Below are positions 5,536 through 64,000 of a stretch of DNA of 64,000 bases, piece by piece (positions within the stretch are counted from its first letter, which is position 1; each line of letters begins with the position of its first letter). The position numbers and the translations under genes were made by a program. The DNA lies in contig CAYITD010000001.1 in assembly GCA_964366325.1 (NCBI GenBank), positions 119,634 to 183,633 on the forward strand, written 5' to 3'. Source of the DNA: Candidatus Woesearchaeota archaeon (GTDB lineage Archaea; Nanobdellota; Nanobdellia; Pacearchaeales; GW2011-AR1). The notes under the pieces were generated by a model. That model saw only the letters and a list, made by a program, of their open reading frames with translations. It searched no databases and was not told the origin of the DNA.

Positions 5536-7298
5536 TTTCTATTCTTATCAAACCACTCATAACCTCTTTTCCATAAGTGTGGAGGATATTCGCGTTCATC
5601 GTGTTTCAAATATTTAGCTGTTTCGGGCATTTCTCTTTTGAATTGTTCTACCATTTCCCTAGCAGTTTTGACATAAGCTGAATTGCCTTTAGATATATCT
5701 GTTCTCAAATTAGCTATGTACCCAAGTTGATTAGCTTGCCAGGAATGTAATGCTCTGCAATTTGCACCAAACGGAACTAACTTTTCTGCAACATGAGGAC
5801 TTATTCTTCTTGCTTCTTCATACATTGACTTGGCCATTTCTATATCTCTAGCATAATCTTCTTCTATTCCAAAAAAGCTAACTATCTCTGGAACTTCAAA
5901 TCCATGTTGCGTAGTTAATAACTGTGTTGACCTAGCTCCTCTTCTATGGCGAAATAAATCTCTATAACCATGATAAGGCATTAGAAGCTCAAACATAAGT
6001 CCACCATGACTTATTGAGGGACTTATTACATCATAAGTTCCTCTATGCCTGTGCGTTTTTTCTAGAACCTCTCTAACATCTGTCTCAGAAAGTGAGGACA
6101 TTATAGATCTTAAAGAAGAATGTGTATATGGAAATACAGCCAAAGCAGCATTGAAGCGATCAGTATGCATTTCTATATCTCTTGGAGTTAACAATGTAGC
6201 TGACTTTGCTCCTCCATGTTCAGGTTGTGCTTGTCCGAATCTTTCTTCAAAATAAGAACGTAATTCTCCTTCATTTTTCACTTTCCATTCATCTACGCTC
6301 ACATGGCTTTTTTCTCCAAGGAGAACAGGAGCTATTTTTTTTGCCTCATTCCATATACTATTTCCTCTTCTTTGATCTTCTGTCCTAGGGCTAGAAATAA
6401 GATCTGTTATAACCTCTTCTAATGTGCGCGCATCAACAGAGTAAACATATGAGGTTCTTGTGCCTGCTAATAAATATACTCGACTAGAGTCCAAAACAAA
6501 CTTACCTACCTCTTTTCTCATGGCCTCATTTGTCAAACCTGCCAAAACTTCTTCTCTAAACTTTGCTCTATCATTATCATCTGGGTGAAAATCAGGGTTT
6601 AAGCGAGTTTTACGTTTTATTTTTGCTTCTACTTCTGACTCCATGTTTTCTTCACTTCTTAAATGATCAGCAATATCTCTTGTGTCAGAGTGATTGAAAA
6701 CAAGATCTCCTAATTGTTCAGTCAATGCCAAATATCTACGATTCATATAACTTGCATATTCTAAAAATTTTCCTGAGGACGGTAAACTCCTGATATCTTC
6801 ATCTTCAAGTATTCCATCTAGAACTCTGCCATAAGAAATATATCTCGTTGACTTAGCCTGTGGCCTCATTAAAGGATGCCCGCTTATCTTTTTGCCAGTT
6901 ATATCCGAAACATTTTCAGAATGTCCAAAAAGAGTAGTACCTTCTTTTATAGAATCATGTCCGTGTGCCAAAACCCATTCTCTGTTAAAGTCTCCAGTTC
7001 TACGCGATATTTTTAATGATCCATCTTTATTTCTAAATATCTCCATCAGTGTAGGAATCTGAGAAATCATGGAACGCGTTTGTTCCGTTTTTTCTATGTC
7101 TAAAAATTGTAAAACTCTCGTTTGCATTGGAGAGTGAGTTCTAGAAACTGCAGACATAAGAGGAGATAGTTCTTCTCCAGCTACAAGAGGCTGTGGATAA
7201 ATGAAGCTGTTTTCCCCATATGGATTAGTAAAAACAAAATTTCTTATTAAATTCTCTTCTCCAGCAGAAAAATTCCTCATCACTCTTTCTTCAACCAT
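5532..7298 (-). CDS. Flavin-dependent thymidylate synthase (ThyX)-like protein, unusually long (two ThyX-like halves)
   Basis: LAHGHDS (cf. ThyX HGHETPFEH), FRHRRGARS (cf. RHRxxS), ARRISPHV...ANCRALHSWQANQLGYIANLRTD (cf. ThyX AR..LP...N.R.L..F..LR.D); 5' end of track ORF is hydrophobic junk so start moved to MVEERV. Confidence 0.45.
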   Translation of the reverse strand: MVEERVMRNFSAGEENLIRNFVFTNPYGENSFIYPQPLVAGEELSPLMSAVSRTHSPMQTRVLQFLDIEKTEQTRSMISQIPTLMEIFRNKDGSLKISRRTGDFNREWVLAHGHDSIKEGTTLFGHSENVSDITGKKISGHPLMRPQAKSTRYISYGRVLDGILEDEDIRSLPSSGKFLEYASYMNRRYLALTEQLGDLVFNHSDTRDIADHLRSEENMESEVEAKIKRKTRLNPDFHPDDNDRAKFREEVLAGLTNEAMRKEVGKFVLDSSRVYLLAGTRTSYVYSVDARTLEEVITDLISSPRTEDQRRGNSIWNEAKKIAPVLLGEKSHVSVDEWKVKNEGELRSYFEERFGQAQPEHGGAKSATLLTPRDIEMHTDRFNAALAVFPYTHSSLRSIMSSLSETDVREVLEKTHRHRGTYDVISPSISHGGLMFELLMPYHGYRDLFRHRRGARSTQLLTTQHGFEVPEIVSFFGIEEDYARDIEMAKSMYEEARRISPHVAEKLVPFGANCRALHSWQANQLGYIANLRTDISKGNSAYVKTAREMVEQFKREMPETAKYLKHDEREYPPHLWKRGYEWFDKNRK

Positions 7299-48007: not shown

Positions 48008-48829
48008 ATGGAATCGATAGATAAGTTGAAATCAGAGTTGAAAATAAGAGGTTTTTCACCTTTAACTGTTAGAAACTACACTTTCTTTGTAGAAAAATTT
48101 ATGCAAAGGATAAACAAATCTCCTCTTGATCTAAATGAAGACGATGTTAAAATTTACCTCTCAGAAATGTTCGATACAAAGTCAAAAAACACTATCATGC
48201 TTGCCGCTGCATCATTAAAGTTCTTTTTCTTAGAGGTTTTAAAAAAAGATTTTAAAAATATTCCTCTTCCAAAAAAAGAGAAAAAGCTTCCAGAAATTTT
48301 ATCTAAAGAAGAAATAATAAACCTAATAAATTCTACAGATACAATAAAATCTCGTTTAATGATTTCTTTTCTTTATTCAACAGGTCTTCGTGTTTCTGAA
48401 ATTGTTAAATTAAAAATCGAAGATCTTAATCTTAATGAAAATACTGGTTGGGTTAGAAAAGGAAAAGGCTCAAAAGATCGTATCTTTGTTTTTTCAAAAG
48501 GTCTCGGGGATGAAATAAAGGAATACATAGAAATGAGAGGAAAAGAAAATCTCTATGTTTTTTCAAAAGAAAAACCCCTGACAACAAGGAACATCCAGAA
48601 AATAATCTCTGGGACGAGAAAAAGAGCAGGAATAACAAAAAGAGTTACACCTCACACTTTAAGGCACTCATTTGCGACCCATTTATTAGAAAATGGAACA
48701 GATATACGAACAATCCAGGCAATCCTAGGCCACGCCTCCCTAAACACAACGCAAGTTTACACTCACATCTCCAGTGACCAAATCAAAAAAGTAAAAAATC
48801 CTTTTGATGGCCTTTATCCCACAATATAA
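48008..48829 (+). CDS. xerA: Tyrosine recombinase XerA/XerC/XerD-like
   Basis: 273 aa; R...HTLRHSFATHLLENGTDIRTIQAILGHASLNTTQVYTHIS (R-H-R-Y catalytic signature). Confidence 0.8.
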   Translation: MESIDKLKSELKIRGFSPLTVRNYTFFVEKFMQRINKSPLDLNEDDVKIYLSEMFDTKSKNTIMLAAASLKFFFLEVLKKDFKNIPLPKKEKKLPEILSKEEIINLINSTDTIKSRLMISFLYSTGLRVSEIVKLKIEDLNLNENTGWVRKGKGSKDRIFVFSKGLGDEIKEYIEMRGKENLYVFSKEKPLTTRNIQKIISGTRKRAGITKRVTPHTLRHSFATHLLENGTDIRTIQAILGHASLNTTQVYTHISSDQIKKVKNPFDGLYPTI

Positions 48830-55234: not shown

Positions 55235-58210
55235 ATGACTAAAATGAATAAAGAAGCACAAAAAATAGATTTCAAAAAAATAGAAAAGAAATGGCAGAAA
55301 GTCTGGGCAGATAATGAAGTTTTTGAAGCTAAAGAAATAGAAAAAAAGAAGAAATTTTACATTTTAGAAATGTTTCCGTATCCTTCTTCTTCAGGGTTGC
55401 ATATGGGTCACGCACTCAATTATACAATCGGGGATATATTTGCGAGATATAAAAAAATGCAAGGTTTTAATATTCTTCACCCAATGGGTTTCGATTCATT
55501 TGGTCTTCCTGCAGAGAATGCTGCTATCAAAGCTAAATCTCACCCAAAAAAGTTCACAGAAGAAGCTATAAAAAATTATATAAAACAGATGAAAAATTTA
55601 GGCATAAGTTACGATTGGTCAAGAGAAATAGAAACTCACAAACCTGAATATTATAAGTGGGATCAATGGATCTTCTTAAAAATGTTTGAAAAAGGTTTAG
55701 TCTATAAAAAAAAGTCTCCAGTAAACTGGTGTCCTGAATGTAATACAGTTTTAGCAAATGAACAAGTTCAGGGTGGAAAATGTTGGAGGCACGAAGAGAC
55801 AAATGTTGAAATAAAGCATCTTGAACAATGGTACTTAAAAATCACGGAATATGCAGAGGAACTATATGACTCTCTTAACAAATTAACAGACTGGCCTGAA
55901 ACAATAAAGACACTTCAGAGAAATTGGATATCAAAAAGTGAAGGGACAGAAGTTGTTTTCAAAATAAATAACGAAAATTGGAAAATATTTACAACGCGCC
56001 CAGATACTTTATTCGGAGTAACTTTTCTCGTTGTCTCAGCACAACATGCAAGACTTATGGATTTTGTATCAAAGGAAAAAAAGCTAGAAGTGGAAAAATT
56101 TGTTAGGAAACTAAATTCCGTTAAAGAAGAAGATATAGAAAAGTTGAACAAAGAAGGAGTTTTTACAGGAAGTTATGCAGAGCATCCATTGACAAAAGAA
56201 AAAATTCCTGTTTGGGTAGGTAATTTTGTAGTTGCTGATTATGGTTCTGGAATAGTTATGGCTGTGCCTGCACACGATCAAAGAGACTTTGAATTTGCGA
56301 AGAAGTACGGTTTGCAAATTAACCCAGTAATGTCTTCAGAAGAAGAAAAAAACGGCGCACAAGATCTTCTCGAGTCAGAATTTAAGAAATTTGTAGAAAA
56401 GGCGAAAAAAGAAAAAAAAGAATTTATCCTAAGCGGAGGTTTTAGCATTCGCATTTTGAGAGGCGTGCGTTATAGAAATCACAAGGATATAGATATATTA
56501 ATTCCAAAGAAAGATTTTGCTTTTTGGAAAAATTATTTTACAAATAATGGGTACGAAGACTGGAGAGAACCAGGAGATAATAAAAGAGACTACTCAAATT
56601 ATGCACTTTATACAAAAGAGATAAACGGATTTGATATCGAGTTTGATATATTTACAATAGAAAAAGATGAACATGGCTACTTTGACAGAGAGTGGGGAAA
56701 GAAAAGGTATTGGAATATTAATTTTGAGGATATAACCTCTTTTGATTATAATGGCGCAGAAATTAAACTTTCAACAAAATTAACTTCCTTTAGAGATGTT
56801 CCTGAAAATAGAAACAAGAAGAAATTAGCTTTAGATTCTTGCTTTGCTTTAGAGAAAGCTTATGAAGGCACAGGAATTCTAATGAATTCAGAAGCTTTCT
56901 CAGATCTTTTCAGCTCAGAAGCTAAAGAACATATAACAAAGGCCTTAGAGGAGAAAAAATTAGGCAATCATGCAACAAACTTCAAATTGAGAGACTGGTT
57001 AATTTCAAGACAGAGATTCTGGGGTACACCTATTCCTATAATTAATTGCAGTGTCTGTGGTTCTGTTCCTATATCAGAAGAAGATCTTCCTGTAGTTCTT
57101 CCTGATAAAATAAAATTTGAGAAGGTAAAAAATCCATTGATAGAGTACGGTAAATTTGTAAACACAAATTGTCCTAAGTGTGGCGGAAAAGCAAAGAGAG
57201 AAACAGACACAATGGACACTTTTGTTAATTCCTCATGGTATTATTTAAGATACTGTGATCCGAAAAATAAAAATGAGATATTTGATAAAAGGAAAGTAAG
57301 TTACTGGTGCCCGATTGATCTTTATATCGGTGGAAAAGAACACGCTTGCTTGCATCTAATATACATAAGGTTTTACACGAAATTTCTAAGAGATTTAGGA
57401 TTGCTTAAATTTGACGAACCCGCTTTAAGACTATTTAACCAAGGGTTTCTATTAGGCCCAGATGGGGAAAAAATGAGCAAGTCAAAAGGCAATGTTATTG
57501 TTCCTGAAATAGTTTCAGAAAAATATGGGATTGATACTGCTCGTTTATTCTTAGTCTCTATAGCGAGTCCAGATAAAGACATAATTTGGAGCGAAAATGG
57601 TGTCGAGGGTTCCCTAAAATTTATCAGAAAAATATTTGATTATGCAAAAAACCTTAAAATAGGTAAGACAAGTGAAAAGCTAGAATCAAAAATAAATAAA
57701 ACCATAAAACAAGTAACAGATGATATAGAGTATTTAAAATATAATTTCGCTGTTATCAAATTAAGATCTCTTTTCGAATCTTTAGAAAATGAAATTTCAA
57801 AACAAGATTTTGAAAAGTGCGTAAAACTCCTTTCTCCTATATGCCCGCATATTGCAGAAGAGCTTTGGAGCAAGTTAGGAAATAAAAGTATTTTGTCTTC
57901 GGAGTCTTGGCCTTCTTATGATGGGTCAAAAATAAATGAAAAATTTGAAAAAACAGAAGAACTTACAGAGAAAACAGTTTCAGACATACTAAATATCTTT
58001 AAAATAGTCTCAGAAAGAGAAAATAAAGAAGTAGAAAAAGTTTATCTCTACGTGCTTCCTCACGAACTCGAGAATTATTCTGAAAAAGAAATTTCAATTC
58101 GTATTAATAAACCAGTTAAGATTTTTTCAGTTTCTGATAAAAACAAATATGATCCACAAGGAAAATCCTCAAAGGCTAAGCCAAATAAGCCTGCAATATA
58201 CGTCGAATAA
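55235..58210 (+). CDS. leuS: Leucyl-tRNA synthetase (archaeal type) with an internal nucleotidyltransferase-like insertion
   Basis: 991 aa; PYPSSSGLHMGHA, editing-domain end PAHDQRDFEFAKKYGL, LRDWLISRQRFWGTPIP, KMSKSKGN. Confidence 0.9.
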   Translation: MTKMNKEAQKIDFKKIEKKWQKVWADNEVFEAKEIEKKKKFYILEMFPYPSSSGLHMGHALNYTIGDIFARYKKMQGFNILHPMGFDSFGLPAENAAIKAKSHPKKFTEEAIKNYIKQMKNLGISYDWSREIETHKPEYYKWDQWIFLKMFEKGLVYKKKSPVNWCPECNTVLANEQVQGGKCWRHEETNVEIKHLEQWYLKITEYAEELYDSLNKLTDWPETIKTLQRNWISKSEGTEVVFKINNENWKIFTTRPDTLFGVTFLVVSAQHARLMDFVSKEKKLEVEKFVRKLNSVKEEDIEKLNKEGVFTGSYAEHPLTKEKIPVWVGNFVVADYGSGIVMAVPAHDQRDFEFAKKYGLQINPVMSSEEEKNGAQDLLESEFKKFVEKAKKEKKEFILSGGFSIRILRGVRYRNHKDIDILIPKKDFAFWKNYFTNNGYEDWREPGDNKRDYSNYALYTKEINGFDIEFDIFTIEKDEHGYFDREWGKKRYWNINFEDITSFDYNGAEIKLSTKLTSFRDVPENRNKKKLALDSCFALEKAYEGTGILMNSEAFSDLFSSEAKEHITKALEEKKLGNHATNFKLRDWLISRQRFWGTPIPIINCSVCGSVPISEEDLPVVLPDKIKFEKVKNPLIEYGKFVNTNCPKCGGKAKRETDTMDTFVNSSWYYLRYCDPKNKNEIFDKRKVSYWCPIDLYIGGKEHACLHLIYIRFYTKFLRDLGLLKFDEPALRLFNQGFLLGPDGEKMSKSKGNVIVPEIVSEKYGIDTARLFLVSIASPDKDIIWSENGVEGSLKFIRKIFDYAKNLKIGKTSEKLESKINKTIKQVTDDIEYLKYNFAVIKLRSLFESLENEISKQDFEKCVKLLSPICPHIAEELWSKLGNKSILSSESWPSYDGSKINEKFEKTEELTEKTVSDILNIFKIVSERENKEVEKVYLYVLPHELENYSEKEISIRINKPVKIFSVSDKNKYDPQGKSSKAKPNKPAIYVE

Positions 58211-58337: not shown

Positions 58338-59474
58338 CTATAATTTTTCATAAATTTTATTTTTAGTCTCTTCATCTTTTGTGTTAAATTTTTCTACAAT
58401 ACTATCAATTATATTTTTTCTTATTTTGTAGGTATTAGCCCATTTTGCATATCCAAACCAGCCTTGCAGTTCTTCAATTAATTTGTTTGGGCTTGTTTGT
58501 GTCGGATCATAATTGTCTAGTTTTTCTTTAAACTTTCTTATAAAAATACGTATATTTCTCTTTCTGAGCAGCTTATGATAATAAAAAACTCTATAACCTA
58601 AGAAAGTAACCCCTTTTCTCAATGGAATTATTTTTGATTTATCTGGGTGCAATTCAAGATTTATGTTTTTTAGAAATTCTATGATTTTTATTTTGAAATA
58701 TTCTAATCTTTTTTTGCTTCTGTGTAAAATTACAAAGTCATCAACATATCTTATGTAATATTTAGCTTTAAGTTCATGTTTAACAAAATAATCTAGTTCA
58801 TTAAGGTAAACATTAGCGAAAAACTGAGAAGTGTAATTCCCTAAGGGCATCCCTTTCCCTTTAACTTCAGAGTCAAAATTTTTCAAGATCAATCTTACAA
58901 GCCAAATAAATTTTCCATCTTTTATTTTCTTTCTTAATATAGAAATTAATACTTCATGATCCACACTATCAAAATAATGTTTTATGTCTGCTTTCAAACA
59001 ATATCCTTGAATTGAATCATAATCTCGCACTATAAAGTTGTTCGCCCCCCCCCCCGAACTAGCTGTCTTTAAGATAAGTCCATTTTGAGAGACTTTTCTT
59101 TTAAAATAATCAAATCTCTGTATAGCTGGATGTGTACCTTTATCCTTTCTGCTTGCAAAAAAATCATAAATGAATATTTTTTCAAAAATTGGATCTAAAA
59201 TGTTAATTACTGCGTGATGCACAATTCTATCTCTAAAAGCTGAAGCGTGTATTGTTCTTGTTTTCGGATCTCTAACTATAAATTTTTTGAGAGGTCTAGG
59301 CCTATAATTCATATTTTCAAGATCTGTTTTTAGATTTTCAAGATTTTCCTTAAAATCTTTATCAAATTCAACAACAGACAATTTTTTGCTCTTTCCTTTT
59401 TTTGCTTTTAAATATGCTAAACAGATATTTTCTGAACTGCAAAGTTTTCGATAGACATTTTTGTATCTTTTCAT
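58338..59474 (-). CDS. Diversity-generating retroelement (DGR) reverse transcriptase
   Basis: 378 aa; RT motif 4 as PLGNYTSQFFANVYL (DGR-specific [IV]GxxxSQ instead of group II QGxxxSP), motif 5 YIRYVDDFVIL; cognate TR/VR pair found. Confidence 0.8.
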   Translation of the reverse strand: MKRYKNVYRKLCSSENICLAYLKAKKGKSKKLSVVEFDKDFKENLENLKTDLENMNYRPRPLKKFIVRDPKTRTIHASAFRDRIVHHAVINILDPIFEKIFIYDFFASRKDKGTHPAIQRFDYFKRKVSQNGLILKTASSGGGANNFIVRDYDSIQGYCLKADIKHYFDSVDHEVLISILRKKIKDGKFIWLVRLILKNFDSEVKGKGMPLGNYTSQFFANVYLNELDYFVKHELKAKYYIRYVDDFVILHRSKKRLEYFKIKIIEFLKNINLELHPDKSKIIPLRKGVTFLGYRVFYYHKLLRKRNIRIFIRKFKEKLDNYDPTQTSPNKLIEELQGWFGYAKWANTYKIRKNIIDSIVEKFNTKDEETKNKIYEKL

Positions 59475-59497
59475 ATTATAAGCCTTAGAGGTCAGGT

Positions 59498-59585
59498 TAT
59501 TCCGAGCGACGCATTAGTGTTAGATGGATTCCTATTGCAGTTCAGGTTAGCCCTGTCTGAATTAGCATTGAACCTAGCGACAGTT
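59498..59585 (-). repeat. DGR template repeat (TR)
   Basis: reverse complement aligns base-for-base with 62243-62330; ~18 mismatches, all at TR adenines; lies just upstream of RT on same strand. Confidence 0.8.
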
Positions 59586-59922
59586 GTAGCACAATCATTA
59601 AGTATCACCATAACTTTAGGTTTCACTCCAAACTTCCCCAAGGTTTTTCATAACTACTTGCTATTGTTATTGTATTTTATGGCTTTTAGCGCTATGATTG
59701 TGCGTGTAACCTGTTAAGTTCTGTCTAGGTATAGTAATTCCTTGAATAAGGAATGAATTTGACAGCCCTCTAAGGCATTCTTACCTTGTAAAATTTGTTT
59801 TAAAATATTTATACAATTTACCATATAAGTTATGTTGTAACTCTAAAGTAACTTCAAAAGAAAGATTTAAATACTCAATATTTCTAGGAAAATTGATATA
59901 AAGCAACATAAAACACATAAAA

Positions 59923-60093
59923 ATGACACAAAATCAAGCTAAAAGCTACACAATAACAAAAAGAATAGCAAAGCACGGCAAACAATCAGTCATACTTATT
60001 CCTAAATATCTACAAGAAGAACTAAGGCCTAAAACGATAGTAGAGGTAAGAATAAATATAGTTAAGGAGGCTGAAGAAAATGGCAGAGAATAA
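59923..60093 (+). CDS. Possible small AbrB/SpoVT-like protein
   Basis: 56 aa MTQNQAKSYTITKRIAKHGKQSVILIPKYLQEELRPKTIVEVRI resembles swapped-hairpin AbrB domain; overlaps start of AAA gene; below ORF-track cutoff. Confidence 0.2.
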   Translation: MTQNQAKSYTITKRIAKHGKQSVILIPKYLQEELRPKTIVEVRINIVKEAEENGRE

Positions 60094-61528
60094 AAATTTA
60101 ACAGAACAACAGAAAGTAAGAAAATTATACGACTTAATCGGCGATAGAGGTCTATATGTTAATACTAATTTTGATGTTTTCTCAGAAAAGCCAGAAATGG
60201 TAGCTTTAGCAGGCGGAGCAGGGTACAAAGTTCCTCTTATTCAACCAGGAACAAAAGCATATGCTTCTCCTTTATTGTTTGCATCACTCACTTCTCTTTT
60301 GAATCACGGAACTATGTTAATAACTGGAGCTCCAGGTATTGGTAAAACTACGGGTGCAGAGTTTGCAGGACATTTCTTCACAGGAACTAGTCTTGAAGAA
60401 ATTCTTGCTTCTGAAATCCAAGGTCATCCTCAATTAACTGAAGAAAAGATGGTTGCTTCTTATGATATAGGTAAGCTTGTAAGTACGGGAGAAAGAAAAG
60501 TTATTCCAAATAGATTCTTGAAGTGTGCTGTAAAAATTCTTGATGAAGGAAACAGAACTCCTTCTGATGTATTAAGTATCATGATGAGATTAGCGGATAC
60601 AGGTAAAGCTGTATATGGCGGTGAACTTCTTAAAGCGGAGCAAGGGCCTTTATATGTAACTGCAAATTATGCGGATGAAGGCACCTTCCAATTTACTCCT
60701 CCTTTTCTTGATCGTTTCGATGTTGCAGTTATGGTAACAAGTCCTCCTTCATGGGATTTAAATAAAATTAGAAAACGTGGAGATGAGAAATTAAATGGCG
60801 GTCTCGGTAATGCGGTTAATATTCCTGAAGGTCTTAAGCTTGACTTTGAAAAACTGAGAGCAGAGATTAAAAATATTCCTCAAGATGTAGAGTATGAAGT
60901 TCCGCAAATGAATGCTTTTGCCGACTTTGTTTATAGCTCGCTGAGATTTTCTGAGGCTGCAAGCGCAAACCTTGCCAGAGCTACAAAGGGAAACGCATGG
61001 CAAGTTAATCAAGATAACTCTCCACCAGGGCATTTTAAGGATTCTCCCTTTAATTATACGGTAAATGAATTAAGTGTGAGAACCGCACAAGCAATGCCTC
61101 GATATGCAAAAGCCTTTGCATGGATGAATGGAGACTCTAAAGTAACTCCTGCGCATCTTAAAACCATTCTTCCTTATATGTTATGGCATAAACTTCAGCC
61201 GACTCAAAAAGCAACAGCAGAAAATGCTTTACATGTTAATGATCGTATAGCTTTTGTTGAGGATTTAGTAGCAAGAATAGAAACAGACTATGATGAACTT
61301 CTAGGAAACTCTAAACTTTTACAAACCTATGCTGCTGCTTTGAAGGTTGTTAGAACTCATAAGATAAAAGATAATGATATTACTCCAGATCAAGTTCGTA
61401 GTGTTGTTAAAAATGCAATTACTCAGATAGGTGCTGAAGATAAAGCGTATGCTGTCACTTTGGCCGATCATATATCTTCTGAGTATAATTATAGTTTAAC
61501 AAATGAATATGACGCGCAACAACCTTAG
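60080..61528 (+). CDS. MoxR-family AAA+ ATPase
   Basis: Walker A LITGAPGIGKTTGAE, Walker B ILDEGNRTP, sensor/arginine region; 482 aa. Confidence 0.8.
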   Translation: MAENKNLTEQQKVRKLYDLIGDRGLYVNTNFDVFSEKPEMVALAGGAGYKVPLIQPGTKAYASPLLFASLTSLLNHGTMLITGAPGIGKTTGAEFAGHFFTGTSLEEILASEIQGHPQLTEEKMVASYDIGKLVSTGERKVIPNRFLKCAVKILDEGNRTPSDVLSIMMRLADTGKAVYGGELLKAEQGPLYVTANYADEGTFQFTPPFLDRFDVAVMVTSPPSWDLNKIRKRGDEKLNGGLGNAVNIPEGLKLDFEKLRAEIKNIPQDVEYEVPQMNAFADFVYSSLRFSEAASANLARATKGNAWQVNQDNSPPGHFKDSPFNYTVNELSVRTAQAMPRYAKAFAWMNGDSKVTPAHLKTILPYMLWHKLQPTQKATAENALHVNDRIAFVEDLVARIETDYDELLGNSKLLQTYAAALKVVRTHKIKDNDITPDQVRSVVKNAITQIGAEDKAYAVTLADHISSEYNYSLTNEYDAQQP

Positions 61529-62351
61529 ACCTTTGCTTCCTGTAAACCCACAAGGGTTAGACGATATAGCTTCTGCTTTATTAGATAATGCTCCTCCTAA
61601 GGATGATGAGGAAAATGTTCTTCCTGCAAGTATTAACAACCCAGAGAAACGTATTATTTTACCAACTAGAACTCATGGCCATTATAGTTATCCTGATTTA
61701 GTTGTAGATATGAATAGACTAGCCTACGATGCAACTGTAGAGAAAGCTGCAAAAGAATTGGGAATTAAGGTAAAAAATACGGGTAAAGAACAAAGCGGAC
61801 ATGACTATATTGGAAACATTAATTGGGAAACTGCTCTAAAATTAAATCAAAAATTAGGAAATGTTACTTTAAATCCGCGCCAGTTTATTGATTTAAGAGA
61901 ATTACTTGAAGCAGGGATAGATAAAAGTAAAAAAGTGTATGACGGGAAAGGCAAACCAATTGCTGTAGATATCCTTAAACAAGTCTATAACGAGATTACA
62001 GAAAAACGTGACCCTTGGAGATCTGAGTGGTTGGATGCTCGATTTACATCTAAAGGCAGATCTCTTGAAATTAATTATGACCATAGGTTATCTGGCGGAA
62101 ATCTTACAGCAGGGAAATCAGAAGCTCTAGAAGCTTATGTTGGTGAAAACTCATGGGTTGACGTTACGAGTTTTAATAGACAAGGGCTCCCTAAGAAAAA
62201 ATCAGCAACAGAAAAATTGTATTACTGGTTTCCTGTAGATGGATCTGTCGCTTGGTTCTATGCTGGTTCGGACGGGGCTGGCCTGTACTGCTATGGGGGT
62301 CCATCTGTCACTAATGCGTCGCTCGGGGTACGTGCCGCGCGAAAAAAATAG
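61503..62351 (+). CDS. DGR variable (target) protein with C-terminal CLec/FGE-like fold
   Basis: C-term YYWFPVDGSVAWFYAGSDGAGLYCYGGPSVTNASLGVRAARKK contains VR; Gly/Tyr/Trp-rich VR-encoded tail ending LGVRAAR like DGR targets (cf. LGFRCAR). Confidence 0.75.
   Translation: MNMTRNNLRPLLPVNPQGLDDIASALLDNAPPKDDEENVLPASINNPEKRIILPTRTHGHYSYPDLVVDMNRLAYDATVEKAAKELGIKVKNTGKEQSGHDYIGNINWETALKLNQKLGNVTLNPRQFIDLRELLEAGIDKSKKVYDGKGKPIAVDILKQVYNEITEKRDPWRSEWLDARFTSKGRSLEINYDHRLSGGNLTAGKSEALEAYVGENSWVDVTSFNRQGLPKKKSATEKLYYWFPVDGSVAWFYAGSDGAGLYCYGGPSVTNASLGVRAARKK
62243..62330 (+). repeat. DGR variable repeat (VR)
   Basis: 88 nt matching RC of 59498-59585 with adenine-specific substitutions; followed by GC-rich cgtgccgcgcg (IMH-like) and stop codon 19 nt later. 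Confidence 0.8.
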
Positions 62352-62360
62352 GAGTTTACT

Positions 62361-63983
62361 ATGGCACAAACACTAGACGTTAGAGTTAATGAAGCATGGA
62401 GTGATGCATTAAAGAGTTGGAACTCTCCTTCAGTTCCTTATGTCATTGCTCCTTCCAATCTTAAAGAAGTTAGAGGAATGGGAGAAATTGGAAAAGCTTT
62501 GGAAGGAGAATTCGCTTTTATGAAATATCCTGAATTTCAAACCTATATGAATCTCGAAAGAATTGTACAGAAATTCCCAACTGATCCTCAACGTGCAGCG
62601 AAAGCAATTGCAAAACATGAAGTGGGTCATAGGTTTTGCCCTTATGATATTGTTACGCTCATTACTTTAAATCATGCTATGAGTAAGGCATTGGAAGCTC
62701 AGAAAATTCCTTATGATGCAAAAGCAGCTGCGCAAAATATTATGAATTTATTTACTGATACTTGCATTAACACTCGTCTTGTTCAGAAGGGAGACGAAGA
62801 CATTTCTTGGGTGTATCAAGGGTTAAGTAAAGAAAAGAAAGGCAGCAAGTTATGGAATGTGTATGGAAGAAGTATGGAACTTATTTGGAAAAGGGATATT
62901 TTGCCGAAAAAGACAAAGTTGAGTGCCGAAGAGAAAACTAGTGCGCAAGATCTAGCAGAATTGTTTACCAGAGATTACTTTAATAGAGATACTTGGAAAG
63001 ATAATGGCATCCGTTATGCTGAAATTATAAGCAAGTTCTTAGAAAATGAAGAACAGGATGGAGATAGTGGGCTTGATAATAGCCTAGGCAATAACTTGCC
63101 TAAAACTATTGATGAAAAAACTGCGCAAGATCTAGCAAAACGTCTGGCTCAAATTGGTAGCGATGGATTGCCACAGAATGCTGAAGGAATGAAAGAATTC
63201 CAGGAAATCATGGCAGGATATGGAAAAGGGGACGCAATACAAGCAAGCATTCAGTTTTATGATATGCTTTCAAAATCTTATGACGTTATGTTTGCGACAA
63301 GACCTTTTGGAAGACCAAGAACAAATCCTTTCCAACCTGTAAAGTGGAATCCTTCAATGGGAACGGAGAGACTTGATGTTGATTATTCAATACATGCAGG
63401 AGGCAAAATTATTCCTGGAGTCAATACTTATGCATGGAACACACGTAAACGAGATGCTTTCGGAGGTCTTGAAGAAGTAGTACCTAATTTAGATATTTAT
63501 TTAGATACTTCAATGAGCATGCCTAATCCTATTCAGCAAATCAGTTTGCCTGTGTTAGCAGGCTTTGTTGTTGCTAAAAAAGCCCACAGAAAGGGAGCAA
63601 ATATTCGTGTAACTAATTTTAGCGGTAAAGGACAATCCGTGACACAAGATAATACGCGCGAATTAAATAAAGTATTTGAGACTCTGGTAGTCCACTATAA
63701 TGGCGGAACAGTGTTTCCAACAGCCACATTAAGTGAGGGGACAGATCCTAGACAAGTTTTAATTATAACTGATACTTTTTTGGGAAATGAAGCTGAAACA
63801 ACAAATGCGGTTAGTAATTTAAGGTCTAGAAATAAAGCTAATAAAGTAACAGTATACGAAATTCACCCAGGGAGTCACGGAAGTTATTTACGTGGAGCTG
63901 GAGCCGAAGTAATTAATGGAACAACTACAGATATATTTAAACGGGTAATAGGTAAAGCCAACGAGGTGTACGCAAATGCATAA
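62361..63983 (+). CDS. DUF2201-type putative metallopeptidase / von Willebrand factor A (VWA) domain protein
   Basis: N-terminal HExxH (AKHEVGHRF); C-terminal MIDAS DxSxS as YLDTSMSM plus downstream T/D residues; classic MoxR partner. Confidence 0.75.
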   Translation: MAQTLDVRVNEAWSDALKSWNSPSVPYVIAPSNLKEVRGMGEIGKALEGEFAFMKYPEFQTYMNLERIVQKFPTDPQRAAKAIAKHEVGHRFCPYDIVTLITLNHAMSKALEAQKIPYDAKAAAQNIMNLFTDTCINTRLVQKGDEDISWVYQGLSKEKKGSKLWNVYGRSMELIWKRDILPKKTKLSAEEKTSAQDLAELFTRDYFNRDTWKDNGIRYAEIISKFLENEEQDGDSGLDNSLGNNLPKTIDEKTAQDLAKRLAQIGSDGLPQNAEGMKEFQEIMAGYGKGDAIQASIQFYDMLSKSYDVMFATRPFGRPRTNPFQPVKWNPSMGTERLDVDYSIHAGGKIIPGVNTYAWNTRKRDAFGGLEEVVPNLDIYLDTSMSMPNPIQQISLPVLAGFVVAKKAHRKGANIRVTNFSGKGQSVTQDNTRELNKVFETLVVHYNGGTVFPTATLSEGTDPRQVLIITDTFLGNEAETTNAVSNLRSRNKANKVTVYEIHPGSHGSYLRGAGAEVINGTTTDIFKRVIGKANEVYANA

Positions 63984-64000
63984 TTCTTTTAGACCCTTAT

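Follow-up and report, generated by a model that had tools for sequence, protein, structure and literature searches.

The locus examined here, which lies within a 64,000-nt stretch of DNA (the window), raises the question of whether a reverse transcriptase (RT) gene and a nearby inverted repeat constitute a complete diversity-generating retroelement (DGR), as a sequence-only reading had proposed, and what else belongs to the element. There is little doubt that it is a complete chromosomal DGR without Avd, serving two target genes, for which roles of an RNA domain and of the target operon can be proposed. Its host, a DPANN archaeon of the Nanoarchaeota type (Woese-/Pacearchaeota-like), comes from Hainich groundwater and has a genomic G+C content of 32%. 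DGRs are already well known in this host group, and the element itself is of a known kind; what goes beyond the earlier finding is the RT-16 RNA adjoining the template repeat (TR), the covarying helices enclosing the TR, and the conserved target operon. Since the locus is bordered by genes for leucyl-tRNA synthetase and ribosomal proteins, and a search of IMG/VR revealed no relatives, we consider the element to be cellular rather than viral.

The enzyme is encoded by a single ORF:

58338-59474, minus strand: DGR RT, 378 aa (Pfam RVT_1, E 1e-20; PDB 8ub7, E 3e-48)

This ORF is intact and carries LGNYTSQFFANVYL and RYVDDF. The motifs LGNYTSQ and YVDD, regarded as diagnostic in the sequence-only reading, are accompanied by an equivalent of R74 of bRT, and the former fits the DGR signature [I/V/L]GxxxSQ, as against QGxxxSP (PMC7826257). 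The best PDB match is the Bordetella phage bRT (8ub7), ahead of the best group II intron RT (E 7e-23) and a "retron-type" RT (E 1e-21), which supports the proposed grouping with DGR RTs. More than 6000 homologues were found, the closest named ones originating from Nanoarchaeota/Pacearchaeota. It is extremely improbable that the RT derives from a group II intron, a retron or a defence-associated system (DRT/UG) and that the repeat is coincidental. The top NCBIfam match is indeed a group II intron RT/maturase model, several homologues are annotated as "group II intron" or "retron-type" RTs in their source records, and PADLOC gave only generic RT and DRT matches; however, the NCBIfam scores fall under the curated cut-offs (156 bits against 300 for the top model), the Bordetella DGR RT is the closest solved structure by 25 orders of magnitude, and the motif is LGxxxSQ, not QGxxxSP. 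Moreover, the protein has no maturase or endonuclease extension, and an Rfam search detected RT-16 alone, without group II intron or retron RNA families.

The repeats and the target genes are arranged as follows:

59498-59585, minus strand (read from 59585 to 59498): TR, 88 nt, 28 A
61503-62351, plus strand: VP1, 282 aa, C-type-lectin (CLec) fold, no Pfam match
62243-62330, plus strand: variable repeat VR1, 18 mismatches, all at TR adenines
62322-62341, plus strand: IMH-like 3′ boundary, CTCGGGGTA-CGTGCCGCGCG, common to VR1 and VR2
63976-64000, plus strand: start of VP2 (P0039, 263 aa); ATGCATAATTCTTTTAGACCCTTA encodes MHNSFRPL, the remainder lying beyond the window

Pairwise alignment of the reverse-complemented TR with VR1 was gapless over all 88 nt, in agreement with the repeat pair first described, and the same pair was recovered independently in a repeat search (82-nt inverted repeat, 82%). 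All 18 mismatches fall at TR adenines, as had been counted by hand; they comprise 12 A>G and 6 A>T changes, some of them synonymous (e.g. TCA>TCG), while the A>C class also listed in that reading is absent from the 88 nt. The likeness ends abruptly on either side, which was borne out by both the alignment and the flank comparison. VR1 occupies the 3′ end of VP1, on the strand opposite to the TR and RT, just as originally placed. VP1 was recognized correctly as a target, but a second one, its paralog VP2, was missed. The complete VP2 gene is located in the overlapping contig L005 (4922-5713) and contains VR2 (5605-5692), in which 22/22 mismatches are at TR adenines. Tabulation by TR base thus gave only adenines for both repeats: 40/40 pooled, on one strand only. 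The P values obtained for this confinement are 5e-12, for 18/18 VR1 mismatches falling by chance on A (28 A in the 88-nt TR), and 1e-15. VR1 and VR2 have 37 nt in common. Among 56 TR-VR pairs of related loci there are 788 adenine and 14 non-adenine mismatches (802 in total); each TR is accompanied by 1-3 VRs and, where the RT was found, is located directly upstream of it. Modelling of the target protein yielded a CLec fold.

The codons of the TR that vary are 8 AAY, 3 AGG, 2 ACT and 1 GAC. Adenine changes cannot produce a stop codon in this frame, from which about 4e12 protein variants are possible. These properties also bear on the idea that no retrohoming takes place and that the TR, beside an unrelated RT, is merely a remnant of a VP gene decayed by AT drift (a pseudogene or a tract of gene conversion). 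Decay toward A/T is to be expected for non-coding copies in so AT-rich a genome (32% GC), yet drift would yield T as well as A, whereas the differences here (40/40) and family-wide (788/802) are at A on one strand. Furthermore, the TR frame has stayed open, stop-proof and AAY-rich, the RT-16-TR-RT module is rigidly conserved, and two related genomes (L007 and L008) have identical TRs and different VRs. The decayed-fragment explanation has a vanishingly small probability, being refuted for practical purposes by the mismatch counts.

At the 3′ end of the repeats, 55 of the 56 VRs of the related pairs have GGGGTA in place of the TR sequence GGAATA, the first of the two differences being at a synonymous Gly site. 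Because this difference is fixed, the final two TR/VR1 "substitutions" more likely represent an IMH/IMH*-type difference than mutagenesis, and the terminal AAUA of the TR (59501-59498) is probably not transferred. The flanks of VR1 and VR2 are identical, including the boundary, the ensuing A-run and the stop codon. The GC-rich IMH-like run pointed out after the VR is therefore common to both repeats and, by codon usage, is built of rare codons (GGG 11%, CGN 16.5%, GCC+GCG 13%); their presence in the invariant GVRAAR tail argues for a constraint at the nucleotide level, not fully separable from the coding constraint. No significant hairpin was found at this boundary (z -0.4 and -0.8).

The operons of L007 and L008 are 95.9% identical and, as noted, the TRs do not differ. 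Between the two genomes, 16 positions differ in VR1 and another 16 in VR2; of these 32, 31 are at TR adenines, against a background of 3.6%; the variation predicted for related genomes at TR-adenine positions was thus found. Where the TRs of genomes differ at non-adenines (GCGTCGCTC vs GGCGGTCTC), both VRs follow the TR of their own genome. The VRs therefore evolve in concert with their TR and diverge among close relatives. On each point on which the claim of a complete DGR could have failed (the base at which mismatches fall, the grouping of the RT, the variation of VRs between genomes), the result favoured a DGR.

Within the population, no VR polymorphism was found in the assemblies, which are consensus sequences giving only the majority allele. 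Four or five assemblies that derive from a single well (replicates R1-R3 at 0.1 µm, and one at 0.2 µm) do not differ in VR1 or in VR2. It is conceivable, though rather doubtful, that this genuine DGR is now (nearly) quiescent in the population and that its VRs are frozen products of past homing. The shared VRs of the same-well assemblies agree with this, and the 37 nt common to VR1 and VR2, instead of heterogeneity, can account for contig breaks beside VR1. Against quiescence, no disabling change has affected the RT, TR, RT-16 or either VR, all of which are intact, the VRs are completely reshuffled in relatives at 96% identity, and a majority allele is all that assemblies report.

The RT, TR and VR of the initial inventory are all real, but this inventory lacked an RNA domain:

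59581-59729, minus strand: RT-16 RNA (Rfam RF03019), 79.8 bits vs a gathering score of 50
59694-59703 / 59589-59598, minus strand: RT-16 closing helix, compensatory changes in 7/10 pairs
59767-59776, minus strand: helix A 5′ strand (GCCUUAGAGG), in the leader upstream of RT-16
59482-59491, minus strand: helix A 3′ strand (CCUCUAAGGC), 7 nt past the TR end and 8 nt ahead of the RT start codon
59709-59713, minus strand: helix B 5′ strand (CAGGU), within RT-16
59493-59497, minus strand: helix B 3′ strand (ACCUG), immediately 3′ of the TR
59737-59754, minus strand: leader hairpin AUUCCUU-AUUC-AAGGAAU, in the MFE and centroid folds

The RT-16 match spans the full Rfam model and overlaps the first 5 nt of the TR. 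RT-16 adjoins the TR 5′ end in 16/16 loci; it was found in 15/15 related loci tested, at -8 to +2 nt from the TR start and always on the TR/RT strand. Helix A was recovered in the MFE fold, and a contiguous helix of at least 9 bp is present at its site in 29/33 related loci, compared with 24% of shuffles. Its arms have 32 distinct sequences across these loci; cognate arms pair at -20.4 and non-cognate arms at -16.0 kcal/mol, the latter still pairing fairly well because the core is conserved (CYAG-type). For helix B, 81% of cells are paired across 31 loci, vs 61% in shuffles (0/500) and 26-46% in slid registers, with both-side changes in 8/8 pairs; in the window it comprises only 5 bp and is not selected in the MFE fold. 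Part of the first hairpin of the RT-16 model is not formed locally at this locus, its 3′ strand being predicted to pair instead with the TR 3′ flank (helix B). From this covariation we infer that the sequence immediately 3′ of the TR is paired both with the leader and with the 5′ edge of RT-16, the closing helix ending at the TR 5′ end; bracketed in this way, the TR would form a closed loop on a structured platform. Mutually pairing segments on both sides of the TR are required in the Bordetella DGR RNA (bioRxiv 10.1101/2023.10.23.563531). The 3′ arm of the leader hairpin resembles the TR end GGAAU; the hairpin may have some role in relation to that end.

On the plus strand, three further genes accompany the targets:

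59923-60093, plus strand: 56-aa basic protein, pI 9.7, first gene of the target operon, with homologues in the same place in 17 related loci
60080-61528, plus strand: MoxR/ChlI-type AAA+ ATPase, 482 aa (Pfam AAA_5 3e-9, AAA_lid_2 8.5e-8)
62361-63983, plus strand: HExxH helical protein with C-terminal vWA, 540 aa, vWA fold, complete MIDAS motif

The original picture of the locus captured the core DGR and overlooked both the conserved small ORF and the ATPase/vWA operon. Its statement that no Avd-like ORF separates the TR/RT from the target holds insofar as no Avd homologue was found at the locus; the 56-aa ORF does lie between them. This protein is not homologous to Avd. Its homologues share 36-95% identity (16 aligned of the 17 loci), and the family gives weak matches to PF04014 (MazE_antitoxin) in 2/17 members (E 0.008); the protein is possibly AbrB/MazE-like. 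Its ORF overlaps the ATPase start codon by 14 nt. The closest PDB entry to the ATPase is BchI (1g8p; 3e-4). The ATPases encoded at the same position in related loci all match AAA_5, and 3/9 match bpMoxR (PF20030); the two ATPase groups, compared by hhalign, gave E 6e-5 over 335 columns, with a reported probability of 65%.

The operon, whose genes overlap at their boundaries, has the order (i) AbrB-like small protein, (ii) MoxR-like AAA+ ATPase, (iii) VP1, (iv) HExxH-vWA protein and (v) VP2. Related loci keep the order small ORF - ATPase - VP - (VP) - HExxH/vWA - VP, also in cases in which simple HMMs no longer detect the diverged ATPase and vWA proteins. This gene order suggests that the VPs may act with the ATPase and vWA proteins. 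A competing view, which we hold to be a serious if minority possibility, is that the VPs are exported adhesins with which an episymbiotic archaeon binds its host, the ATPase and vWA proteins assembling or maturing them or being unrelated neighbours. Such a role is the usual suggestion for DPANN DGR targets; CLec targets of phages and bacteria are mostly ligand-binding surface proteins (PMC8144416), and host interaction has been suggested for CPR/DPANN DGRs (PMC10907252). However, VP1 and VP2, inspected by eye, showed neither a signal peptide nor a transmembrane segment, although they might leave the cell by another route. Archaeal DGR targets were also noted to lack recognisable membrane domains (Roux et al., PMC8144416), and the conserved operon, compact and with overlapping genes, in which the VPs are encoded alongside a MoxR-like ATPase and a MIDAS-vWA protein fits the bacterial cytoplasmic MoxR-vWA systems (PMC7159879).

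We propose that the minus strand encodes one unit, comprising the leader, RT-16 RNA, TR, a short 3′ flank and the RT gene. The RT would copy the TR into cDNA, misreading adenines, and this cDNA would replace the last ~85 nt of VP1 or VP2 on the plus strand, so that homing rewrites about 14 codons per gene and never creates a stop codon. Synthesis may start at the G's of CUCGG, a predicted site just 5′ of the fixed AAUA, which would explain why GGAAUA is not copied into the VRs. To our knowledge, the only DGR RT studied biochemically requires Avd; with no Avd homologue here, the mechanism must differ in some step. RT-16 could take the scaffolding role held in the phage by spacer RNA plus Avd. 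As opposed to exported adhesins, the VPs might serve intracellularly as the variable, ligand-binding components of a complex resembling a chaperone or a sensor, in which the MoxR-like ATPase and HExxH-vWA protein of the same operon would be their partners.

Among known systems, the Nanoarchaeota/DPANN DGRs described since 2015 (Paul et al. 2015, PMC4372165; AvpA structure 5ioo) share with this element the host group, the subsurface groundwater, the chromosomal location, small orphan CLec-fold targets and a small basic ORF between RT and target; the source-named RT homologues of the element are annotated as Nanoarchaeota or Pacearchaeota. The Bordetella BPP-1 DGR (mtd-avd-TR-brt) has in common with it (i) adenine-specific TR-to-VR transfer, (ii) an RT with [I/V/L]GxxxSQ and R74 (an equivalent here), (iii) a VR at the 3′ end of a CLec-fold gene, (iv) a GC-rich VR 3′ boundary differing from the TR copy and (v) mutually pairing RNA segments upstream and downstream of the TR, predicted in our case. 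Helices A and B resemble the "cPRT stop" duplex of the Bordetella RNA, but the large structured domain lies upstream of the TR here (RT-16) and downstream there (spacer/RT-10), and 120-190 nt separate the TR from the upstream strand of the closing duplex, which in BPP-1 lies within 20 nt. BPP-1 is a phage system with Avd and a 140-nt spacer, whereas this cellular element lacks both, its TR being ~24 nt upstream of the RT, and has two targets on the opposite strand.

The MoxR-vWA "ternary" conflict systems (Kaur et al. 2020, PMC7159879; Dore et al. 2024, PMC10907252) likewise combine genes for a MoxR-type AAA+ ATPase and a MIDAS-vWA protein with a CLec domain diversified by a DGR, and some ATPases of the related loci match the Pfam bpMoxR model built from them. 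In those systems, which were linked to multicellular bacteria, the CLec is fused to the vWA domain; in these ultrasmall unicellular archaea it is a separate small protein (two or three paralogs), the vWA protein has an HExxH helical domain in its place, and VMAP, TIR, caspase and trypsin components were not detected.

RT-16, matched here over its whole model well above the gathering score, was published as occurring "near RT genes" without an assigned role, only RT-10 being tied to DGRs (Weinberg et al. 2017, PMC5737381); at these loci it is always fused to the TR. In DGR "Architecture A" (Wu et al. 2018, PMC5758913) the TR is also directly upstream of the RT, avd is absent and multiple targets are allowed. 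Beyond this TR-RT core without an accessory gene, our loci possess two conserved features, a small ORF and an RNA domain, which may represent its missing accessory functions.

[quoted passage not shown] The window contains an element that we regard, with hardly any reservation, as a genuine and complete DGR. It is a clean example, with all of its parts located within approximately 6 kb:

58338-59474, minus strand: reverse transcriptase (RT) gene, 378 aa
59482-59491 and 59767-59776, minus strand: arms of helix A (10 bp in the window; recovered in the MFE fold)
59498-59585, minus strand: template repeat (TR)
59581-59729, minus strand: RT-16 RNA (Rfam RF03019), full length (1-158), 79.8 bits against a gathering threshold of 50, ending within the first 5 nt of the TR
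Plus strand: AAA+ ATPase gene (AAA_5 and AAA_lid_2; closest solved structure, BchI)
61503-62351, plus strand: gene of variable protein VP1
62243-62330, plus strand: variable repeat VR1
63976-64000, plus strand: first 25 bases of the gene of variable protein VP2

The TR, read as the reverse complement of 59498-59585, was aligned with VR1 over 88 nt without gaps. All 18 of the 18 mismatches fall at TR adenines (A>G, 12; A>T, 6); with 28 A in the 88-nt TR, the probability that every VR1 mismatch falls on A by chance is 5e-12. The sequence-only reading had counted roughly 18 substitutions by hand, every one at a TR adenine, and had described sharp breaks of similarity at both ends; the computed alignment agrees on both points, the likeness breaking off abruptly on either side. 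The same TR/VR1 pair was recovered by an independent repeat search, and no further TR/VR copies were found by repeat searches of the 64-kb window. A second variable repeat, VR2, is present at 5605-5692 of L005, a contig of the same aquifer that overlaps the window. It differs from the TR at 22 positions, 22/22 of them TR adenines, while all non-adenine positions match (P = 1e-15). VR1 occupies the terminal ~30 codons of VP1, and VR2 those of VP2. The TR includes 8 AAY, 3 AGG, 2 ACT and 1 GAC codons; stop codons cannot be reached from it by changes of A, and approximately 4e12 proteins can. Synonymous changes of A are also present (TCA>TCG and CCA>CCG), which shows that the TR/VR differences are mutational and not selected.

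The gene opened by the last 25 bases of the window (MHNSFRPL...) is identical to that of P0039, a 263-aa paralogue of VP1. The whole locus is contained in L005, comprising (i) the 56-aa ORF, (ii) the AAA ATPase, (iii) VP1, (iv) a 540-aa protein and (v) VP2. In both VP1 and VP2 the VR is displayed on a C-type-lectin (CLec) fold. Pfam, NCBIfam and PADLOC gave no match for VP1, VP2, the vWA protein or the small ORF, and no relatives of the targets were found among the viral contigs of IMG/VR. Archaeal DGR targets lacking recognisable domains, whose location was left open, have been reported by Roux et al. (PMC8144416), a point to which the gene order described below is relevant. The N-terminal peptide of the VPs is conserved, RPLLPVNPQGLDDIA (window 61503-61580 and the N-termini of the alignment). 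All VP paralogues share the N-terminal pattern RPL[LIV]PVNP.GLD.IA..LL, followed by a disordered linker; purely as speculation, it might dock onto the ATPase or onto the MIDAS site of the vWA protein. One VP2 variant, P0187 (from a 7291-bp ENA contig), has an unchanged VR2 but for the loss of 1 nt from the GGG found in place of TR codon AGG; the reading frame is thereby shifted across the whole VR. This deletion may be a sequencing error in a G run, or an indel that arose at an adenine-derived site.

The RT ORF is intact and contains LGNYTSQFFANVYL and RYVDDF. The DGR RT signature [I/V/L]GxxxSQ (defined in PMC7826257) is present in the translation as LGNYTSQ and the catalytic YxDD as YVDD, in keeping with the first description of this 378-aa protein; they align with IGSLTSQ and YMDD of bRT, the RT of the Bordetella phage BPP-1 DGR. 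An equivalent of bRT residue R74 is also present. The protein matches Pfam RVT_1, and its nearest solved relative is bRT (8ub7), matched at E 3e-48, whereas a group II intron RT reaches 7e-23 and a 'retron-type' RT 1e-21; the group II intron match in NCBIfam lies well under its cut-off. Judged by E-values of profile and PDB matches, the RT is closer to DGR RTs, as had been proposed, than to those of group II introns or retrons. The RT gene also contains a run of 11 C (59045-59055; G11 on the coding strand), flanked by an inverted repeat (GTTCG/CGAAC) and located in a genome of 32% GC. The run encodes a Gly-rich loop (SSGGGA), which is variable and Gly-rich in homologues, and L005, an independent assembly contig, begins exactly after it. 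Slippage at this run could switch the RT on and off; alternatively, the run may be no more than a weak point of assembly or sequencing.

The statement that no Avd-like ORF is present also held: neither Pfam nor NCBIfam gave an Avd match at the locus. According to Wu et al. (PMC5758913), avd is missing from 26% of DGRs (present in about 74%). The sole small ORF of the locus encodes a basic protein of 56 aa, which is conserved in 17 loci and shows weak AbrB/MazE-like signals (PF04014 match in 2/17 members, E 0.008; PDB profile matches, E ~1).

The 3′ boundary of transfer was inspected in the 56 TR-VR pairs available from related loci. The TR ends in GGAATA and the VR in GGGGTA in 55/56 of them, the first change being synonymous. 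The 3′ flank is identical in VR1 and VR2 (GGGGTACGTGCCGCGCGAAAAAAATAG), and its codons (GGG GTA CGT GCC GCG CGA) are rare in this 32% GC genome. We read GGGGTA/GGAATA as a putative fixed difference of the IMH/IMH* type (the VR 3′-end boundary and its TR counterpart), marking the end of transfer and overlapping with coding constraint, which is not fully separable since the flank also codes for the invariant GVRAAR. Hairpins or cruciforms of the BPP-1 style downstream of VR1 and VR2 were no better than in shuffled sequences. GC-rich hairpins with a GAA loop occur ~8-12 nt past some related VRs (e.g. L031 after 3389, L026 after 7012, L041 after 637 and L056 after 2397), none following VR1 or VR2 of the window. 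They include GCGCC-GAA-GGCGC, and GCTGC-GAA-GCAGC versus GCAGC-GAA-GCTGC, a compensatory swap. Paul et al. 2015 (PMC4372165) described a hairpin with a trinucleotide loop, which is probably the same feature.

The related loci were collected by a scan with the VP alignment, using one genome per species, which gave 59 loci; an iterated VP profile was set aside, as it was contaminated by ORFs reading through the TR into the RT. Mismatches in the 56 pairs number 788 at TR adenines versus 14 elsewhere. Each TR is accompanied by 1-3 VRs; in loci with an identified RT, the TR immediately precedes the RT gene, in the same orientation. In approximately one third of these DGRs, an 18-25 nt stem-loop (CUCG-loop-CGAG) is located inside the TR and is missing from all cognate VRs (L012, L013, L015, L021, L024, L032, L033, L034, L036, L038, L040 and L046; for example, L033 TR 1092-1164 and the following sequence). 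Its flanks still match the VRs with adenine-only mismatches. At these loci, either the RT would need to pass over the hairpin or trimming of the cDNA would be needed. The window TR carries no such insertion.

Two close-relative MAGs, L007 and L008, permit a comparison over a shorter distance. Their operons are 95.9% identical and their TRs are identical; VR1 differs between them at 16 positions, as does VR2, and 31/32 of these correspond to TR adenines. The window TR also differs from that of L007/L008 at non-adenine positions, and there both VRs of each genome track their own TR, the hallmark of recurrent TR-to-VR transfer. In the population of the window itself, the assemblies, which are consensus sequences, held one allele each of VR1 and VR2. 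When metagenome contigs were searched with a TR sequence in which each A had been masked as N, only the same Hainich population and the chimeric contig L068 were recovered, with no VR variants. Variation at TR adenines, predicted from the sequence-only reading, was therefore found between L007 and L008 and not within the window population, whose assemblies are identical. Contig ends adjacent to VR1 and at the RT homopolymer were considered as signs of population heterogeneity and rejected: VR1 and VR2 share 37 identical nt, and coverage is 3-7x. Two related populations with different TRs share one well. Contig L068 (ERZ1292640, 3557 bp) and protein P0190 are identical on one side to the window strain and on the other to an L007-type strain, with switch points inside the vWA gene (L068) and inside VP1 (P0190); the joins could reflect either chimeric assembly or genuine recombination.

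The window sequence was found in Hainich groundwater assemblies (well H43, 0.1 um fraction). The neighbours of the DGR encode leucyl-tRNA synthetase (LeuRS), archaeal ribosomal proteins and RNA polymerase subunits, and homologues with a source annotation belong to Nanoarchaeota, Woesearchaeota or Pacearchaeota. The DGR is chromosomal and resides in a DPANN archaeon. DGRs have been known in Nanoarchaeota/DPANN since 2015 (PMC4372165), and the element is thus of a known kind, in a group already rich in DGRs. Tyrosine recombinase genes (Phage_integrase) are located on both sides, ~10 kb upstream (window 48008-48829, plus strand) and ~0.6 kb downstream (L005 6275-6901, minus strand) of the locus; the region is probably not a mobile island, because housekeeping genes lie between them. 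The LeuRS gene (55235-58210) contains an insertion at about aa 387-489, between the editing domain and the remaining catalytic core, which matches nucleotidyltransferase families (Aminoglyc_resit, E 1.7e-5; NTP_transf_5, E 8e-4). In assembly L002 this gene was called as two ORFs (888 and 105 aa).

What is added here is (i) a second target, (ii) the assignment of RT-16 to the DGR RNA, with a covariation-supported fold, and (iii) a conserved MoxR-like/vWA operon around the targets, a context that Paul et al. 2017 (Nat Microbiol) may have covered already. The locus therefore offers two handles, a covariation-backed RNA model (leader, RT-16, TR loop and 3′ flank) and a conserved ATPase/vWA partnership; should both fail, it would be just one more nanoarchaeal DGR.

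RT-16 has been published as a motif near RT genes only, RT-10 alone being tied to DGRs (PMC5737381), and no link between RT-16 and DGRs was found in the literature searched. We detected RT-16 in 15/15 related loci tested (64-87 bits), with the same abutment to the TR, and its closing helix shows compensatory changes in 7/10 pairs. The conserved motif 3′ of the TR was tried as a small local hairpin and rejected; RNAalifold detected none, and duplex searches identified it as the 3′ strand of long-range helices. In helix B, the bases right after GGAAUR pair with those right before the conserved YACAYGY of RT-16; pairing was observed in 81% of cells, versus 61% after shuffling (0/500) and 26-46% in slid registers, with changes on both sides in 8/8 pairs. 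In helix A, the next ~10 nt, 3′ of the helix B strand, pair with a leader segment upstream of RT-16. Helix A reaches at least 9 bp in 29/33 loci, versus 24% of shuffles, and its arms show 32 different sequences. The TR would accordingly lie in a loop that RT-16 closes at one end and helices A and B close at the other end.

The Bordetella DGR RNA likewise needs pairing of segments upstream and downstream of the TR (the 'cPRT stop' duplex; bioRxiv 10.1101/2023.10.23.563531). In that RNA, both the priming adenosine and a large structured spacer are located downstream of the TR, and the system depends on Avd, whereas the order is inverted in the window and only 23 nt separate the end of the TR from the RT start codon. 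The upstream RT-16 platform and the helices between leader and 3′ flank would enclose the TR, standing in for Avd and the spacer RNA; if so, the orphan RT-16 RNA would acquire a function. The published analysis took 40 nt upstream of the TR (bioRxiv 10.1101/2023.10.23.563531), a limit at which helices A and B would be missed.

The genes of the plus-strand operon overlap or almost touch. The ATPase is adjoined by a vWA protein with a MIDAS site, whose identity came from a fold search only (its family profile gave no match to PDB sequences) and which carries an HExxH motif of putative activity. By simple HMM iteration, ATPase and vWA proteins of the window type were detected in 4 loci only; the other positional homologues were recognised by alignment, hhalign and motif inspection, and the gene order is kept even where both proteins are too diverged for simple searches. 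All positional-homologue ATPases match AAA_5 and 3/9 match bpMoxR (PF20030); the subfamily placement is approximate. Compared with the window ATPase, those of related loci gave E 6e-5 over 335 columns at 65% probability (hhalign). Gene order, the sole basis for this view, points to VPs that may work with the ATPase and vWA proteins inside the cell, and the conserved partnership hints at an intracellular rather than the assumed surface role of the targets. If true, archaeal DGR targets without a known function would gain a testable cellular context. Taking RNA and operon together, it is possible, though short of probable, that this family of DPANN DGRs uses an RNA architecture unlike that of the phage and diversifies free-standing CLec subunits of a MoxR-like ATPase/HExxH-vWA machine.

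The closest analogue is provided by the bacterial MoxR-vWA 'ternary' systems with DGR-diversified CLec domains (PMC7159879; PMC10907252). Searches of the locus with Pfam, NCBIfam and PADLOC revealed no VMAP, iSTAND, FtsH, beta-propeller, peptidase or TIR. Since VMAP and the effectors are missing and the CLec domain is unfused to vWA, the locus is an analogue of these systems and not a member. If the proposed partnership is true, the MoxR-vWA 'antigen sensor' systems of bacteria would have a counterpart in archaea, in organisms that have been stated to lack this association.
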